A stretch of DNA of 64,000 bases. Source: Candidatus Staskawiczbacteria bacterium. Lineage in GTDB: Bacteria > Patescibacteriota > Minisyncoccia > Minisyncoccales > Staskawiczbacteraceae. The notes under the pieces are model-generated. The model ran no database searches and was not told the origin of the DNA. It saw nothing but the letters and a program-made list of their open reading frames with translations. Position numbers and translations under genes: made by a program. Of the stretch, positions 3,124 through 51,204 are shown piece by piece. The DNA lies in NCBI GenBank assembly GCA_963756225.1, contig CAVWMZ010000004.1, forward strand, positions 3,412 to 67,411. The letters are read 5' to 3'. How positions within the stretch are numbered: the first letter of the stretch is position 1; each line of letters opens with the position of its first letter.

Positions 3124-3235
3124 TTGTAAGACGGCTATATCGGAGGTGCTCCACCTGTTCCCATTTCGAACACAGAAGTGAAATCCTCCAGAGCCGATGG
3201 TAGTGGCAACGCGAGAGTAGGTCGCCGTCTTACAA
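3124..3235 (+). rRNA. rrf: 5S rRNA
   Basis: Helix I pairs TTGTAAGACGGC with GCCGTCTTACAA. The conserved core CCACCTGTTCCCATTTCGAACACAGAAGTGAAA is present. Length is 112 nt. Confidence 0.9.
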
Positions 3236-8073: not shown

Positions 8074-9541
8074 ATGCCAACAATCGAAGAACTCCGTAAA
8101 ACAAGAATCGAAAAACTAAAGAAGCTTAAAGATGCTGGGTTTTTATCGTATCCAGCGAAAACAAATAGAACTAATTCTATTGCAGAAGTTATAGAGGATA
8201 AGAATTTTAAGAAATTATCGAAAGGCAAAAAACGAATTGTTTTAGCTGGAAGAATAATGGCACAGAGAGGGCATGGCGGCGCTACTTTTTTGGACATAAA
8301 TGATGGGTCTGGGAAAATTCAAGCTATAATTAAGCAAGATAAAATAGGGGAGAAAGGTTATCAATTTTTCTTGGACGTTTTTGATATAGCCGATTTTGTA
8401 GAAATAAAAGGAATTTTGTTTACAACCCAGAGGGGGGAGAAGACAATTGAGGCGGAAGATTATAAAATGCTTTCAAAAGCATTGTTGCCTTTACCAGAAA
8501 AATGGCACGGCTTGCAGGATACTGAAGAGAAACTAAGGAAAAGATATTTAGATATTATCTTTAATCCGGAGGTTAAGGAAATGATTAGAAAGCGGACTAT
8601 TTTTTGGGCCTCAATGAGAGAGTTTTTGGTTGAAAAGGGGTTTTTGGAAGTTGAAACGCCTGTTTTAGAAACAACTCCTGGGGGAGCCGATGCAAAACCA
8701 TTTATAACGCATCATAATGCTCTAGATTTGGATGTTTATCTTAGGATTTCTATGGGAGAATTATGGCAAAAAAGATTAATGGTTGCGGGTTTCGAAAAAA
8801 CCTTTGAGATTGGTAGACAATTCAGAAATGAGGGCATGGATTCAGAGCATTTGCAGGATTACACGCAAATGGAGTTTTATTGGGCTTATGCAGATTATGA
8901 ACAGGGCATGGAGTTTGTTGAAGAAATGTATAAATATATTGCTAAAAAAACTTTTGGAACTTTGAAGTTTAAGATTAAGGGATTCGATGTTGATTTGGGA
9001 AAAAAATGGGAAAAATATGATTATCAGTTCGATAATTGCAAGAGAGACGGGAGTTAATATAGCAGAGGCCGGTTTGAAAGAAATAGAAAAAGCTCTACAA
9101 AAACTAAAAATTGATTATGATAAAAATGGTTTTAATATAACCAGAGCTATCGATAATCTATGGAAATACTGTAGGAAAAATATTTCCGGTCCGGGATTTT
9201 TAATTAATGCGCCAATCGAAGTTTCGCCCTTAGCAAAGAAAAATGAAAAAAATCCAAAAGTTGCGCAAAGATTCCAGGTAATTTTGGCGGGTTCTGAAAA
9301 TGGAAATGGCTATTCCGAGCTTAATGATCCTATTGATCAGGCCGAAAGATTCAAAGAACAACAAAAACTTAGAGAAAAAGGAGACGAAGAGGCGCAAATG
9401 CACGATGAAGACTTTGTTGAGGCCTTAGAGCATGGAATGCCACCAACCTGCGGATTTGGAGTTTCAGAGAGGCTATTTTCCTTCTTAATGGACAAACCAA
9501 GTCGTGATTGCCAGATATTTCCTTTAATGCGACCAAAATAA
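8074..9541 (+). pseudogene. lysS: Lysine--tRNA ligase (class II), one frameshift as sequenced
   Basis: The two track ORFs (8074-9057 and 8987-9541) join into a complete LysRS. The break is near 9005-9020 at A8/A5 runs. Length is 3n+1. Confidence 0.85.
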
Positions 9542-38310: not shown

Positions 38311-38781
38311 TTATTGGCCATTCATCACGCTTAAGAGCGCTTCGGCCGCTTCGGCTCCTTTGTTATTTTGTTTTCCGGAACGGTCTTTGGCCTGCTTTAA
38401 ATTAGAAACTGTTATAACTCCAAAAGAAATTGGTATAGATTCTTCAAGCATAACCGTCATAATGCCTCTCGTGGTTTCTCCTGCAATATAATAATAGTGA
38501 TCGGTGCCGCCTTTAATAACTGCTCCAAGAGTTATTATGCCGTCAAATTTCTTTGTTTTAGCCAAGATCTGACATGTCAATGGTATTTCAAACGAGCCGG
38601 GCACATGAACAATTTTAATATTATTATTTTTAAAACCCTGCTCGGCAAAAAAATCCAAGGCGCCGACTAAAAGATTTCCAGTAATGTCAGAATTAAAATC
38701 TGCAACCACGATAGCTATTTTGTGCTTGTCCCAATTCTTTAATAGAGCTCCTTTTTCTTTTTTATTATTTTTTCTTTGCAT
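38311..38781 (-). CDS. ribH: 6,7-dimethyl-8-ribityllumazine synthase
   Basis: VPGSFEIP and LGAVIKGGTDHY motifs. Confidence 0.9.
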   Translation of the reverse strand: MQRKNNKKEKGALLKNWDKHKIAIVVADFNSDITGNLLVGALDFFAEQGFKNNNIKIVHVPGSFEIPLTCQILAKTKKFDGIITLGAVIKGGTDHYYYIAGETTRGIMTVMLEESIPISFGVITVSNLKQAKDRSGKQNNKGAEAAEALLSVMNGQ

Positions 38782-39370
38782 GTGTATTATTTTTTAAAAT
38801 ATTAAAAATATATTTTGCTATTATATCTGTTTCTATGTTAACTAAATCGCCTACTTTTTTATCTCTAAAATTTGTGTTCGTAATAGTATAATCTACCAAT
38901 GAAACCGTAAACCGTTTGTCTTTAGCATCTACTACGGTTAGGCTGATTCCGTCTACGGCAACAGATCCTTTCGGAGCAATATATTTCATAAAATCTTTTG
39001 GAACTTCCATGGTTATAACTTTCGAATCCCCCATTACGTCTATACGTATAATTTTACCAACAGTGTCCACATGCCCCGAAACTAAATGCCCATCAATAAG
39101 ATCGCTTAACTTTAAACTTTTCTCTAAATTAATGATCAGGCCAGCAAGCCATTTTAAAGCAGTTGTCTTGCTTGTGGTTTCTGGCATATATTCTACTAAA
39201 AAACTTTTCTTTGATACATTTTTTACAGTTGAGCAAATACCATTAATTGAAACGCTTTCCCCTTTCTTCAATTTCCATCCCGACGGCAAAAAAATTTCAA
39301 CAAAAAGACTTTTGTTTTTTAGTGATACTTTTTTTATTTTTTCTGTTTTTCTAACTATGCCTGTAAACAT
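38765..39370 (-). CDS. ribE: Riboflavin synthase alpha chain
   Basis: MFTGIV N-terminus and a duplicated lumazine-binding barrel. Confidence 0.9.
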   Translation of the reverse strand: MFTGIVRKTEKIKKVSLKNKSLFVEIFLPSGWKLKKGESVSINGICSTVKNVSKKSFLVEYMPETTSKTTALKWLAGLIINLEKSLKLSDLIDGHLVSGHVDTVGKIIRIDVMGDSKVITMEVPKDFMKYIAPKGSVAVDGISLTVVDAKDKRFTVSLVDYTITNTNFRDKKVGDLVNIETDIIAKYIFNILKNNTHAKKK

Positions 39371-43117: not shown

Positions 43118-43285
43118 CTCCGGATTTGATAGTTTGAGTTTAGTAAAAGGCCGTAATTTTTTTTGTTCTATTCAGGGCTAATTACATCCTTTATCCTAAA
43201 CTCAAAACGTTTTTTAAGGTACTGTTTAATGCTTAAAATAACATATTTTTGTAGTCATGTCAATAATTAAAATTTTATATAAAAT

Positions 43286-43329
43286 AAAAAGCCCCTCACA
43301 CACATGCCCGAAGACATGTGCGGAGGGGT
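43286..43329 (-). terminator. Intrinsic terminator of the G+C-rich operon
   Basis: Long stem CCCCTC.CACACATG / CATGTG.GGAGGGG, followed by a T-run on the minus strand. Confidence 0.7.
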
Positions 43330-43356: not shown

Positions 43357-43863
43357 TTAGTCGCCGAAGTGGCCGGCAAGGAATTCGCTGAGACCGCCGA
43401 GGCCAAGGCCGCTGAGCGAGGGCAAGGGAATCTCGATATACTCCGGCGCCTTGGAAGGGATAATCGCGACCTTCCAGCCCTTGCGAATGCCGAGGCTCGG
43501 GTTTTCGCCTGCCAATTCCGGGAACGTTCTCCGAACCGACGACCAAAACATGTCGCGGATGGTTTGGGAGTTGTTCCTGGGGATGGCGAGCTTCTGCTCG
43601 ATGGCTCCGATCGCAGCCCGAAATTCCCGCGGGGGCGTATTCTCGAACATCTCGCGCAGTTTTTCCAGCTCTCCGATGGTTTTCGCTCCGAGCGTGGTCA
43701 GCTCATTGCTGCTTTCGATGAGCACGGCATAAAGGCCGCGCAGCTCCGGTGGCAATTCGCCGACAACCCGATCTTCCGGGCCGACTTCGGTGTCACGCAC
43801 CAGCGCGTCGTTTTTCGGTACACTATTCTTCGCTTTATCCAATATTTCTTGGATGAACTTCAT
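43357..43863 (-). CDS. Hypothetical protein (168 aa), G+C-rich
   Basis: GGAG Shine-Dalgarno, its own consensus promoter, and a downstream terminator. Overlapping plus-strand ORFs were rejected. Confidence 0.6.
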   Translation of the reverse strand: MKFIQEILDKAKNSVPKNDALVRDTEVGPEDRVVGELPPELRGLYAVLIESSNELTTLGAKTIGELEKLREMFENTPPREFRAAIGAIEQKLAIPRNNSQTIRDMFWSSVRRTFPELAGENPSLGIRKGWKVAIIPSKAPEYIEIPLPSLSGLGLGGLSEFLAGHFGD

Positions 43864-43945
43864 GGTTTTCTCCTATTTTGCGGCTCGCCCGTTTCCCTGC
43901 AATAGCGCAGAGTTAGGGCGTGCCTATGTTGTGTGCTATCTAACA

Positions 43946-43973
43946 ATTATACACGAAATGCATTTTATGTCAA
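43946..43973 (-). promoter_or_regulatory. Sigma70-type promoter
   Basis: On the minus strand: TTGACA (43973-43968), 16 nt, TATAAT (43951-43946). Confidence 0.65.
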
Positions 43974-44038
43974 TATTTAACGGGTAATTAAAAAGCCCGT
44001 TGATGTTTCCATCGCGGGGCACAGGCTGAACGGAAATA

Positions 44039-44231
44039 TTATTCTGAAGGTTGCAGGGTATTTTGCGGCAGATTCCTCTCTGCTGCACGACGTTCGCTCT
44101 TTTCGCGATAAATATGACAAGCGGTGTAGATTTCTGAGCACGGTTTTGACTTCTCGCATAGCGCATTCAGGAATTCGCCGTTTCTGCAGTCATTTGAAAA
44201 ATGGACAGGCACTTTTCATATATAGTTCCAT
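44039..44231 (-). pseudogene. Cys/His-rich small protein, paralogue 2 (one frameshift in a T5 run as sequenced)
   Basis: GGAGA Shine-Dalgarno. The restored sequence is MELYMKSACPFSNDCRNGEFLNALCEKSKPCSEIYTACHIYREKS... It shares the pattern CP-x4-C-x9-C-x4-PC-x3-Y-x2-CH-x-Y-x-EK with the upstream gene. Confidence 0.45.
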
Positions 44232-44256
44232 TTGGTTCTCCTATTGGTTAGTTTCT

Positions 44257-44505
44257 TTATCGACGCAATGCCTTCAACATATTGGTAAAGACGGCAAATA
44301 AATTAACCCGCGCAACAGGGGCGCTTTCAGCAGCAAGACCGTTGCATTTAGGTTGCAAGGGCTTTGGCGCAGCAGCTTCCTTCTCTAGATAATAATGGCA
44401 GCGGTCATAACACGTGTCGCAAGGACGACTTGCGGGGCAACACGCCATCACTGCAGCAGAATGCGAACAACTTTTCTTATGTGGGCAATGACCAAAGGTA
44501 GTCAT
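44257..44505 (-). CDS. Cys/His-rich small protein, paralogue 1 (82 aa)
   Basis: AAGGAGG Shine-Dalgarno. HCPHKKSCSHSAAVMACCPASRPCDTCYDRCHYYLEKE. Confidence 0.65.
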   Translation of the reverse strand: MTTFGHCPHKKSCSHSAAVMACCPASRPCDTCYDRCHYYLEKEAAAPKPLQPKCNGLAAESAPVARVNLFAVFTNMLKALRR

Positions 44506-44551
44506 GACGCACCTCCTTCAGGTTTTCTGGTTTTCAATGAGCAATAAACAA

Positions 44552-44577
44552 CAAAAAATCCCCTAGTTCTTAGGAGA
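44552..44577 (-). terminator. Leader (attenuator-like) terminator between the GAF-ANTAR gene and the Cys-rich operon
   Basis: Minus-strand RNA CUCCUA-AGAAC-UAGGGG followed by AUUUUUUG. It lies about 45 nt upstream of the 44505 ATG and downstream of the promoter. Confidence 0.55.
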
Positions 44578-44627
44578 CAACTTTGTCGCTTGGGGGGGAG
44601 ACACATCATTGTGCCAACCTTTAATCT

Positions 44628-44655
44628 ATTATATTCTTTCAAGACATCGTGTCAA
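44628..44655 (-). promoter_or_regulatory. Sigma70-type promoter of the Cys-rich operon
   Basis: On the minus strand: TTGACA (44655-44650, overlapping the ANTAR gene stop), 16 nt, TATAAT (44633-44628). Confidence 0.65.
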
Positions 44656-45372
44656 GCCACTCCCTTCTTTAGCTCATCAGAAATTAAAATTGCATCGGCG
44701 ACCTCTTTCATGGAGATTCTTTTATTCATGCTTTTTTTATTTAAAAGCTTATAAGCGTCTTCTTCGGAAATAGACAGCTCTTTCATCAAAATACCTTTTG
44801 CTTTTTTCGATTGCTTTTCTGGTTTCCAACGCTTCTCTTAATTCATGACTCTCTGTAAAAAGCCTTGCATTTTCGATAGCACCTCCAATTGCCTTGGCAA
44901 TAGTTTCAAAAAGTTTTATTTGGCTGTCAAAATATTTTTGGGACTTCTTGTGTTGGACATTGATAACTCCCAGGGTCGCTTTTTTATATATTACCGGAAC
45001 CGACAGAAATGCCTCATAGGAATCTTCCGGCAAATTATTAAACAACTTGAAACGTTCATCGTCATAAGCTTTTTTAGAGACAATAACAGTCTTCTTATTT
45101 TTAGCTACCCAACCAGTAATTCCCTCCCCCAGTTTTAACCTAATATTTCCAATAATTCCGGGATGAGCATTCTGTGATGCGCGCAGAACAATATTCTTCC
45201 CATCAATTAAATACAAAAAACAAGAATCAGCTTTCGTTAGCTCTCCAACAATATTTATAATTTTTGACAAAACTTCTTCTAAATTCAGGTCGTAACTTAT
45301 TGTATCTATGATTGTATGCAAAATCGCCAATTCTGAACCATCTTTGCCATTTTTATTTTCTCTTTTAGGCAT
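44652..45372 (-). pseudogene. GAF-ANTAR RNA-binding antiterminator-type regulator, one frameshift (extra A in A6 run 44802-44807)
   Basis: GAF domain in the track ORF. Removing one A restores the ANTAR domain IEKAKGILMKELSISEEDAYKLLNKKSMNKRISMKEVADAIL. Confidence 0.75.
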
Positions 45373-45402: not shown

Positions 45403-45883
45403 CTATACAATGTGTATATTTTGTAAATTGAAATCAGAAATTACATCTTTAGCATGATCAGCGGGTTTTACATCTTCATATATTTTATCTATTTTGCCTT
45501 TAGGGTTTATAAGAAAAGATGTTCTTTTTATTCCTTCATATTCTCTGCCCATAAATTTCTTCTTGCCCCAAACACCATACATTTTCACAACTTTTTTATT
45601 TTCGTCAGATAATAAAGGAAATGGTAGCTTATATTTTACTGAAAACTTTTCATGAGATTCTATAGAATCTGAGCTCACCCCCAAAACAATCAATTTTAAT
45701 TTTTTAAAGACAGAAATATTATCCTCTTATTTCACAGGCTTCTTTTGTACATCCTGGCGTATCGTCTTTTGGATAGAAATATAACAAAACCGAGCTTCCC
45801 AAATAAGAAGACAAAATATGCTCCTTTCCTTCTTGGTCTTTTAATTTGAAATCTGGGGCACTATCCCCTACTTTTAATTTCAT
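45403..45883 (-). pseudogene. bcp: Bcp-type peroxiredoxin (thiol peroxidase), one frameshift as sequenced
   Basis: N-terminal APDFKLKDQEGKE..YFYPKDDTPGCTKEAC. It then continues into track ORF 45403-45693 after a shift near 45720. Confidence 0.8.
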
Positions 45884-49815: not shown

Positions 49816-50865
49816 TTAAATTTTAACTATTTTCTCCCAAGGAAGATCACCCTTTCCAAAATGTCCATAAGCAGCAGTTTTTAAATAGATTGGATTTTTC
49901 AAATTAAGAGTTTCTATTATTGATTTAGGCTTGAAATCAAATTTACTTATTATCTCATCTAAACTTTTTCCATTTTCATCAATTGCAGAGACCATTAAAG
50001 GGTCAGCCATTCCAATCGCATAAGCTACAGAAACCAAGCATTCTTTTGCATACCCATTAGCTACAATATTTTTTGCAGCAAACCTAGCCATATAAGCAGC
50101 TGACCTGTCTACTTTGCTTGGATCTTTTCCTGAAAAACATCCGCCGCCATGAAATATTAATCCGCAATAGGTATCCACCATTATTTTTCTGCCAGTTAAT
50201 CCCGTATCTGCTTCAAATCCGCCCTGCACAAATTTACCGGTTGGATTTACAAAAATTTCCACGCCATCAATATCTCCTAGAATAGGCCTTATTAATTTTT
50301 CGATTAAAATATTTTTTATTTCTTCTTGTAAAATTTCTGCATCATGCTGAGTGCTTACTAAAACATTTTTAATTTTACCGTTTTGCATTACTATTTGCGT
50401 TTTCCCATCTGGCTTTAACCATTTAATTTCACCTCTTTCTCTTAAATCCTGTAACCCTTTTGCTAATGCATGAACTTTCACTACAGCCCACGGTAAAAAT
50501 TCTGGCGTTTCATTTGTTGCGTATCCATACATAATTCCCTGATCCCCCGCTCCGCCGACATTAACGCCCATGGCTATGTCTGGAGACTGTTCAACAATAT
50601 TAATTAAATATTTTAATTCTTGATCATATCCAATATTTTTATAAACTTTTTCTGCAACCTCCTGATAGTTAACTTTGGCTAGTGTTGTGACTTCCCCGCC
50701 CACAACAACGAGCCCATGTCCCCCAAACGATTCTACTGCCACCCTTGAATTTTGATCTTGTTTTAAACACTCATCTAAAATTGCATCTGAAATTTGATCG
50801 CAAACTTTATCTGGATGCCCCGATGTGACACTTTCTACTGCATATGTTTTTTGATTTATTATCAT
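49816..50865 (-). CDS. metK: S-adenosylmethionine synthetase
   Basis: GHPDKVCDQISD, GAGDQGIMYGYA and GGGCFSGKDPSKVDRS motifs. The start was moved to MIINQKT because the track ORF's 5' extension overlaps the riboswitch terminator. Confidence 0.9.
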   Translation of the reverse strand: MIINQKTYAVESVTSGHPDKVCDQISDAILDECLKQDQNSRVAVESFGGHGLVVVGGEVTTLAKVNYQEVAEKVYKNIGYDQELKYLINIVEQSPDIAMGVNVGGAGDQGIMYGYATNETPEFLPWAVVKVHALAKGLQDLRERGEIKWLKPDGKTQIVMQNGKIKNVLVSTQHDAEILQEEIKNILIEKLIRPILGDIDGVEIFVNPTGKFVQGGFEADTGLTGRKIMVDTYCGLIFHGGGCFSGKDPSKVDRSAAYMARFAAKNIVANGYAKECLVSVAYAIGMADPLMVSAIDENGKSLDEIISKFDFKPKSIIETLNLKNPIYLKTAAYGHFGKGDLPWEKIVKI

Positions 50866-50955
50866 AATGATATTTTTTGCATAAGCATCCTGGCAAATAA
50901 AACTTTTCGACACGAAAAGTTTTAGTATTTGGCAGAAAATTACATTTAATATTTT

Positions 50956-50982
50956 TAAAAAAAATCTTCCCGACAAGGAAGC
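50956..50982 (-). terminator. Expression-platform terminator of the SAM riboswitch
   Basis: CUUCC/GGAAG stem followed by U8 on the minus strand. The stem is short. Confidence 0.5.
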
Positions 50983-50985
50983 ATG

Positions 50986-51098
50986 ACCCTTATCTTCCCC
51001 ATTAGGGGTTTGGATTTAGCACCTTTATTGAGGAGTCGCCCCAAAAGGTTGCTGGACGGGTCGCAGAGCCAATTCTCTCACCGCCACTCTTGATAAAT
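50986..51098 (-). ncRNA. SAM-I (S-box) riboswitch
   Basis: Minus strand reads UUAUCAAGAGUGGCGGUGAGAGAAUUGGCUC..GACCCGUCCAGCAACC...AAGGUGCUAAAUCC...GAAGAUAAGGG. This matches the conserved S-box core and P1 (CUUAUC/GAUAAG). Confidence 0.85.
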
Positions 51099-51204
51099 AA
51101 ATTGTTTAATAAATATATTATATCAAATATAAATTGATATGCAAATTTTACAAAAAAAAGGGCGCGAATGCTGCTGCATCGCGCCATAACTTTAATTATT
51201 TTCC

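Follow-up and report, generated by a model that had tools for sequence, protein, structure and literature searches.

Antitermination by ANTAR proteins is in itself a known mechanism. Experiments on EutV, NasR and AmiR have defined the RNA target of these regulators as two hairpins of at least 3 base pairs (bp), joined by a linker of variable length, whose hexaloops carry A at position 1 and G at position 4 (A1/G4) and which compete with a terminator (Ramesh et al. 2012, PMC3369931). Here, we describe a locus on the minus strand of a 64-kb stretch of contig CAVWMZ010000004.1 from a Candidatus Staskawiczbacteria bacterium (64,000 nucleotides, hereafter the window), in which the gene for a one-component GAF-ANTAR regulator is followed by a leader RNA and two small genes encoding Cys-rich proteins. 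We consider it likely that this locus is a self-contained ANTAR-antitermination module of a Paceibacterota bacterium, with the small Cys-rich proteins as its outputs and a nitrogen signal as its input.

The locus shares with the EutV/eutP, NasR/nasF and AmiR/amiE systems an ANTAR output domain combined with a leader of two A1/G4 hexaloop hairpins, the mutual exclusivity of the second hairpin and a terminator, and a link to nitrogen metabolism (PMC3369931). It differs from them in its sensor, where a one-component protein relies on a single GAF domain, whereas EutV, NasR and AmiR use a receiver, a NIT or an AmiC-partnered domain; in its outputs, which are two small proteins of no described family instead of enzymes or transporters; and in the position of the target promoter, which overlaps the stop codon of the regulator. 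As of 2012, no GAF-ANTAR protein had been characterized (PMC3369931), a review of 2025 lists GAF only as a domain architecture, and no experimentally characterized GAF-ANTAR one-component regulator was found in the literature searched. What is new here is comparative evidence for a family of one-component GAF-ANTAR regulators that occurs, along with its presumed RNA targets, in Patescibacteria and other lineages, together with an apparent lineage-specific exchange of glnA (glutamine synthetase) for an undescribed and very narrowly distributed family of small Cys4His proteins.

Architecture of the Locus

The order of the features was read on the minus strand of the window, over the region 45372-43281. 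All features named in a preliminary description of this DNA, made from the letters of the sequence, were recovered in place on that strand, among them the consensus promoter overlapping the regulator stop and the leader in which a terminator scan found a stem followed by T6 ahead of a strong Shine-Dalgarno sequence. The module itself comprises the following features, with lengths in amino acids (aa).

45372-44652, minus strand: gene for the GAF-ANTAR one-component regulator (Pfam on the frame-repaired protein)
44655-44628, minus strand: sigma-70-type promoter TTGACA-16-TATAAT, 12/12 consensus matches, with the -35 hexamer overlapping the TGA stop of the regulator
44615-44600, minus strand: leader hairpin P1, GGCAC-AAUGAU-GUGUC, A1/G4 hexaloop
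44589-44574, minus strand: leader hairpin P2, GCGAC-AAAGUU-GUCUC, A1/G4 hexaloop, 3' arm doubling as the 5' arm of the terminator
44578-44553 (stem 44578-44558), minus strand: intrinsic terminator GUCUCCUA-AGAAC-UAGGGGAU followed by U6 (terminator scan)
44541-44530, minus strand: motif CTCATTGAAAAC, conserved with the consensus YTCRTTGAAAAC, 3' of the terminator and 5' of the Shine-Dalgarno sequence
44519-44510, minus strand: Shine-Dalgarno sequence GAAGGAGGTG of small gene 1
44505-44257, minus strand: small gene 1 (type 1), 82 aa, in which a linker connects the Cys4His domain at the N-terminus to a hydrophobic and basic tail at the C-terminus
44231-44039, minus strand: small gene 2 (type 2), 63 aa after removal of one T, with its own Shine-Dalgarno sequence

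The Leader RNA as a Predicted ANTAR Target

The leader is about 115 nucleotides (nt) long in the window, and a 10-nt linker separates P1 from P2, each of which carries an A1/G4 hexaloop. The stem of P1, which is 7 bp long in relatives, measures 5 bp in the window, and the P2 stem consists of a 3-bp core plus an outer G-C pair. The segment GUCUC (44578-44574) serves both as the 3' arm of P2 and as the 5' arm of the terminator, so that P2 and the terminator are mutually exclusive. The preliminary description had recognized one hairpin in this leader; P2 and its overlap with the terminator hold, whereas the hairpin count was wrong, as P1 lies 10 nt upstream. Once P1 is added, the suggestion of an ANTAR target is in full agreement with the published structural definition (PMC3369931), every element of which is present: two hairpins, A1/G4 hexaloops and the exclusivity of P2 and the terminator. 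Folding of the 5' 52 nt yields P1 and P2, and the minimum-free-energy fold of the full leader yields P1 and the terminator; these folds support two alternative states of the leader.

Across eight aligned loci of the subclade to which the window belongs, the TTGACA hexamer of the promoter is invariant, the -10 element reads TATAAT, TATACT or TATAGT, and 98.5% of the terminator cells are paired. An alignment of 11 leaders was assembled from these eight subclade leaders and three leaders linked to glnA. Considering both loops, A occupies position 1 in 10/11 leaders and G occupies position 4 in 11/11, and the GAC/GUC core of P2 is unchanged in all 11. Altogether, 91.7% of the cells are paired and four pairs show compensatory changes, three of them among the seven pairs of P1. 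The covariation score reached 0.263 compared with 0.182 in shuffled alignments (3 of 500 shuffles reach 0.263) and with values of at most 0.109 for slid partners. The covariance-model search that had been advised for the leader gave a single strong site in the window: the model of P1-P2 (R1) matched 44571-44622 with 56.7 bits (E 1.6e-14), the next best site scoring 9.5 bits. R1 was too sequence-specific to recover the leaders of Acidobacteriota.

These features bear on a simpler explanation, in which the terminator just ends the transcript of the regulator, the hairpins are structural or due to chance, and the small genes are independent of ANTAR control. The generic two-hairpin motif does occur at chance frequency, and one member of the small-protein family (in L138) lacks such a leader, as this explanation would allow. 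However, a conserved consensus promoter precedes the terminator and no promoter-like element follows it; P1, P2, the A1/G4 loops and the P2-terminator overlap are found in every subclade locus, and the same features stand before glnA in other classes and phyla, with compensatory changes. We regard an ANTAR-independent leader as very unlikely.

The motif YTCRTTGAAAAC, 3' of the terminator, is clear in seven of nine subclade leaders (window, L002, L003, L005, L131, L132 and L134) as well as in L137, a short contig described below; it appears in the weaker form CTCATTAAAAAA in L087, and the glnA leaders lack it. Between the motif and the start codon lie from about 25 to about 90 nt. Inspection found no -10 element at a suitable distance, and a role as a second promoter was rejected. 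A conserved extra motif to which no role is assigned would suit a leader recognized by a metabolite, as in a riboswitch, or by an RNA-binding protein other than the adjacent regulator. This seems highly improbable to us, given that Rfam returned no match even at E up to 10, that the element spans only about 50 nt and matches the ANTAR consensus exactly, and that it accompanies the ANTAR gene in mutually unrelated genomic contexts.

Linkage of Regulator, Leader and Small Genes across Genomes

Downstream of regulator orthologs of 81-88% identity, a promoter, a P1-P2-terminator leader and one or two Cys-rich genes were observed in eight of eight distinct loci, the count being limited to loci with readable downstream DNA (window/L001, L002, L003, L005/L006, L087, L131, L132/L133 and L134). 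In each of them the promoter lies at, or just 3' of, the regulator stop codon. The preliminary description had named a lack of conservation of this linkage as what would refute it, and the linkage proved to be kept in all eight. The loci other than the window carry the following small genes.

L002 (844-kb ENA scaffold): two small genes, 77 and 64 aa
L003 (JGI): two small genes
L134 (ENA): two small genes
L087 (regulator 88% identical): a type 1 small gene, then the end of the contig
L005/L006 (ENA/JGI): one small gene
L131 (NCBI): one small gene
L132/L133 (JGI/Logan): one small gene

The surroundings of the module vary. Upstream neighbors encode Bcp in the window, an arginyl-tRNA synthetase (ArgRS) in L002, a PALP enzyme in L003, an S-adenosylmethionine (SAM) synthetase in L005 and L132, and a flavodoxin-like protein in L131; downstream neighbors encode a Big_1 protein, a radical-SAM enzyme, DinB/LexA, an integrase, or, as judged by eye, a product with a phosphofructokinase-like N-terminus. 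The module is thus found in at least five different genomic contexts, and its constancy while the surroundings change argues for functional coupling of its parts. L137, a 506-bp contig with a divergent Cys-rich member, starts inside the same type of leader, and a metagenome scan with the regulator yielded two close loci only.

The Regulator Protein and the Frameshifts of the Window

As written, the open reading frame (ORF) of the regulator ends at 207 aa, and ANTAR-like sequence continues in a second frame; with the A6 run at 44807-44802 shortened by one A, the product has 239 aa. The GAF-ANTAR identity that had been proposed after this deletion was borne out by full-length Pfam matches to both domains, GAF_2 at residues 29-167 (2e-19) and ANTAR (PF03861) at residues 177-229 (1.2e-20; score 73.5 bits, cut-off 27.3; positions 2-54 of the 54 in the profile). 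The sensor GAF domain is joined N-terminally to the ANTAR domain, an architecture of input domain plus output domain. A homolog search with the repaired protein returned intact orthologs of 81-88% identity (P0003-P0012 and P0014), which form a tight group separated by a gap from many homologs at 60-69% identity, the named ones among the latter being Candidatus Paceibacterota or other Patescibacteria; in total, more than 7,000 homologs were found at E < 1e-10.

In small gene 2, the shared Cys pattern comes into frame only after one T is dropped from the T5 run at 44201-44197. The Logan assembly L001 (run ERR10755936) contains the same locus, 99.7% identical over 1,206 nt, with T4 and an intact 63-aa gene, and carries a different indel of its own in a 168-aa gene lying downstream. 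L001 also runs across the boundary at which the A+T-rich regulator gives way to the G+C-richer genes, so this boundary is not an assembly chimera.

With two of the three genes of the module out of frame in the window, one could see here a decaying remnant in which the frameshifts of the regulator and small gene 2 are real and nothing is regulated or expressed. The frameshifts sit in homopolymer runs, however, as do most single-base frameshifts of the window; small gene 2 is intact in the independent assembly L001, where the indel falls elsewhere; and orthologs in other genomes are intact. Genes outside the module are likewise split, namely that of the peroxiredoxin Bcp upstream of the regulator (45403-45883, minus strand) and that of a class II aminoacyl-tRNA synthetase (8074-9541, plus strand), one of its two overlapping ORFs matching positions 2-163 of the Pfam profile and the other positions 184-307. 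Since the loss of the essential synthetase is implausible, and since other homopolymer frameshifts occur in the window, the frameshifts are most likely sequencing or assembly indel errors and not gene decay, which we consider an unlikely account of this locus. The contig probably contains systematic indel errors, and other apparent pseudogenes in it need to be treated with caution.

The Wider Regulator Family and a Probable Exchange of the Target Gene

Outside the close subclade, glnA follows distant homologs of the regulator in 10 loci from species-representative genomes and metagenomes. These include loci of Paceibacterota (L007 and L008, regulators 64-65% identical), Buchananbacteria (L009 and L010) and Gottesmanbacteria (L011), with further loci of the glnA type in L013, L089 and the Anaerolineales (L012); the identity of the glnA-linked regulators to that of the window ranges from 48 to 65%. 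In L007-L013 and L089, a homologous regulator is thus combined with the same leader design of promoter, P1, P2 and overlapping terminator, as judged by inspection or by a match to R1. The difference lies downstream, where these units encode glutamine synthetase and not Cys-rich proteins, and in the lack of the motif following the terminator. Elsewhere in the family, the downstream genes encode an ammonium transporter (L034), glutamate dehydrogenase (L092 and L096), the glutamine amidotransferase GATase (L093), the nitrite/sulfite reductase NIR_SIR (L044) or a tetrapyrrole methylase (L027). The Cys motif occurs in 0 of 80 genome loci outside the close subclade, and the 64-kb window contains no glnA.

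Because the homologs precede glnA, amt, gdh and nitrite/sulfite reductase genes, the family is best described, on the evidence of gene neighborhoods, as one of predicted nitrogen-assimilation regulators, and a general association of ANTAR proteins with nitrogen has been noted before (PMC3369931). Fixed differences that set the subclade apart from the group of 62-69% identity are confined to four alignment columns. From this we infer that in one subclade of Paceibacterota the regulated gene was exchanged, from glnA to the Cys-rich genes, while the sensor and its signal would have remained unchanged. The control of glnA, gdh, amt and nirA-type genes by homologs, taken with the four fixed differences of the sensor, suggests that the signal is most likely a nitrogen-status metabolite.

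As separate observations on the family, GAF-ANTAR homologs of 39-55% identity are plentiful in Terriglobia, Bryobacterales and Nitrospirales (L015-L086, Acidobacteriota and Nitrospirota), and in the loci checked their neighbors are amt, the NIR_SIR reductase or tetrapyrrole methylase genes and not glnA. Many family members are named 'uroporphyrinogen-III synthase' by JGI, which looks like a propagated annotation error.

The Small Cys-Rich Proteins

In an alignment of 18 members with a mean column identity of 29%, seven residues are invariant (C7, P8, C13, P28, C29, C36 and H37), giving the signature CP-x4-C...PC-x6-CH with the spacing C-x5-C-x(14-17)-PC-x6-CH. The pattern initially read from the two paralogs of the window stands in its CP-x4-C and PC...CH parts; its C-x9-C spacing was rejected as a family feature, as C23 varies among the 18 members. 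That the small genes are tandem paralogs is upheld by the pattern they share once one T is removed and by the intact second gene of L001. The members fall into two orthologous groups. Type 1 comprises the first gene, which is marked by an additional conserved C-x-H and whose C-terminal tail is hydrophobic and basic, as in VNLFAVFTNMLKALRR, and has homologs in L002, L003, L087 and L134, plus P0127; type 2 comprises the second gene and the single-gene forms, most of which keep the hydrophobic and basic tail, and has homologs in L002, L003 and L134, plus P0125, P0130 and P0131. Because there are two orthologous groups, the duplication is older than the divergence of the genomes, with both copies kept. 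This grouping, and the invariance of seven residues at 29% mean column identity, argue that the small ORFs are real genes.

Recovery of the family depended on the kind of search. Exact-sequence look-up of the 82-aa and 168-aa proteins returned nothing, and a word-indexed homolog search returned only their self-matches, which for the 82-aa protein was a false negative, corrected by gene neighborhood and by an exhaustive HMMER search. The latter, run with a profile from the two window paralogs against 1.84 billion cluster representatives, gave 13 proteins, 11 of them real members of 63-109 aa and two, judged by eye, low-complexity repeat proteins. The 18 members and the family profile had no match in Pfam, NCBIfam, PHROG or PADLOC at permissive thresholds, and the profile found nothing credible among all PDB sequences. 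The Cys pattern had not been recognized as a described family at the outset, and the lack of a match in these four databases, among PDB sequences or among PDB folds bears this out.

Structure prediction, likewise advised in the preliminary description, was done with AlphaFold2 from a three-sequence input and gave small protein 1 a predicted local distance difference test (pLDDT) of 68 overall, which is moderate, and of 76-80 in a helical N-terminal domain; together with the profile searches, this indicates a helical domain of no known family or fold. In the model, C29 and C36 are seven residues apart on one long helix and hence on the same face. The products are most likely mainly helical domains of about 45 residues, whose predicted Cys4 or Cys3His site would bind zinc or an iron-sulfur cluster, and the C-terminal tail of type 1 and of most single-gene forms could attach the proteins to the membrane.

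Short, Cys-rich and lineage-restricted products of tandem paralogous genes, matching no known family, could also be precursors of exported or modified Cys-rich peptides, similar to ribosomally synthesized and post-translationally modified peptides or to bacteriocins, and not intracellular metal binders. No modification enzyme, protease or exporter is conserved alongside them, however, and each locus has different flanks; by eye, nothing like an N-terminal signal or leader was seen ahead of the conserved domain, which begins at residues 3-8; and the predicted fold is helical, its C29 and C36 being separated by one heptad within a single helix. Secreted peptide precursors are therefore given little probability here.

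Among described small proteins, two groups invite comparison by analogy. WhiB-like (Wbl) proteins are small helical sensors with a [4Fe-4S] cluster bound by four cysteines in the arrangement C-x(14-22)-C-x2-C-x5-C. The proteins described here resemble them in size (60-90 aa) and in the four invariant Cys of a predicted helical domain; the Cys spacing differs, and no member gave a Wbl match in Pfam at E up to 10. IF7 and IF17, the factors that inactivate glutamine synthetase in cyanobacteria, are small regulators that are not Cys-rich. The likeness in this case concerns small, paralogous proteins under nitrogen-status control, which is predicted for the present proteins, and the difference is the Cys-richness of the present family.

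The 168-aa Gene, Base Composition and Other Observations

The small genes are followed in the window by a gene with its own promoter and terminator.

43973-43946, minus strand: second promoter, for the 168-aa gene, 12/12 matches
43863-43357, minus strand: 168-aa gene, G+C 0.58
43328-43281, minus strand: strong terminator 3' of the 168-aa gene

The separate promoter and strong terminator had been noted correctly in the preliminary description, whereas the gene they enclose is not part of the conserved unit, as no similar gene lies 3' of the small genes in any other locus. The protein has no homolog beyond itself and L001 and no match in Pfam, NCBIfam, PHROG or PADLOC, and its structure model is unusable (pLDDT 35). 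Two near-identical units of a terminator end plus a promoter -35 hexamer, about 705 nt apart (43257-43294 and 43967-43998), flank the gene, whose G+C at codon positions 1, 2 and 3 is 0.59, 0.42 and 0.72. By this comparison across loci, the 168-aa gene is a genome-specific neighbor and apparently no component of the module, and it looks like a foreign ORF or cassette inserted into the intergenic region.

The downstream genes are indeed more G+C-rich than the regulator, as first noticed by the preliminary reading: G+C amounts to 0.49 in small gene 1, 0.44 in small gene 2 and 0.58 in the 168-aa gene, compared with 0.35 in the regulator. In all seven loci measured, the small genes exceed the regulator (0.38-0.49 vs 0.29-0.35), and a recent horizontal acquisition of the small genes, as G+C might suggest, was rejected because all seven loci share the excess.

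Further observations concern other parts of the window and the contig of the weakest family match. The window holds a 23S ribosomal RNA (rRNA) gene (1-2791, its 5' end cut by the window edge), a 5S rRNA gene (3127-3233) and a SAM-I riboswitch (50987-51099, minus strand) upstream of the gene at 49816-50976. The genes for riboflavin synthase, with a lumazine-binding domain, and lumazine synthase (38311-39370, minus strand) are notable for a small Patescibacteria genome. L138, a Patescibacteria contig of 1.7 kb, has a near-identical hairpin CCACC-TTTTAATTG-AGGTGG with a T-run in successive intergenic regions (at about 121-147, 465-488, 839-862 and 1248-1269), each copy closely preceding a -35 hexamer of the TTGAC type, which makes it a repeated, compact terminator-promoter unit.

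Proposed Mechanism and Its Weighing

In the mechanism we propose, the constitutive-looking promoter over the regulator stop would start a transcript that by default ends about 70 nt on, at the intrinsic terminator. Upon reception of the signal by the GAF domain, the ANTAR domain, probably as a dimer, would bind P1 and P2 of the nascent leader; closed P2 would then sequester GUCUC, the 5' arm of the terminator, and RNA polymerase would read into the one or two small genes. The small proteins would most likely be the lineage-specific output of a nitrogen-status signal, and we work from the hypothesis that it switches them on as metal-binding effectors.

Several observations weigh against this reading. 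The eight subclade leaders show no covariation signal among themselves, the element being nearly invariant and the sequences too similar, and because of this similarity covariation became informative only after the glnA leaders were added. Rfam had no match in the leader at gathering or at permissive thresholds (E up to 10), and a generic scan for two hexaloop hairpins followed by a T-run found three sites in the window against 2.5 +/- 1.7 in shuffled sequence. Because shuffles give as many generic sites, the RNA motif alone does not exceed chance; the significance of the leader comes from its position and its conservation across the loci compared. In L138, the weakest family match has its own promoter and lacks an ANTAR leader, and the 580 nt ahead of it contain no regulator. 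P0008, a close ortholog of the regulator outside the eight readable loci, precedes a gene whose product has at least 750 aa. In the window, frameshifts affect the regulator as well as small gene 2. The nitrogen signal is deduced from homologs, and the case for metal binding consists of the invariant Cys/His pattern and a model of moderate confidence, for which Foldseek returned 0 matches against the PDB. Taking these points into account, we still favor a module in which the adjacent regulator controls the small genes by antitermination.

A more far-reaching version can be offered only tentatively and is, in our estimate, doubtful: a nitrogen riboregulator would have been redirected from glutamine synthetase to a newly evolved pair of Cys4His metalloproteins, with one partner held at the membrane, which would make up a new class of effectors of the nitrogen signal, perhaps by modulating a transporter or enzyme of the cell or of its host, in an episymbiont that does not regulate, or does not have, a glnA of its own.

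Significance

The family supplies compact and exceptionally clean test cases, with a regulator, a promoter, a 50-nt RNA target and a regulated gene inside about 1.2 kb, for GAF-ANTAR one-component regulators, which the number of their homologs marks as common. It also illustrates how short, fast-evolving families escape word-indexed protein searches and can be recovered by neighborhood and exhaustive profile search. In Patescibacteria, where most small proteins are unannotated, the exchange of a target under a nearly unchanged sensor provides a functional handle on proteins without annotated relatives: the small Cys-rich proteins are probably turned on by the signal that activates nitrogen assimilation in sister lineages.

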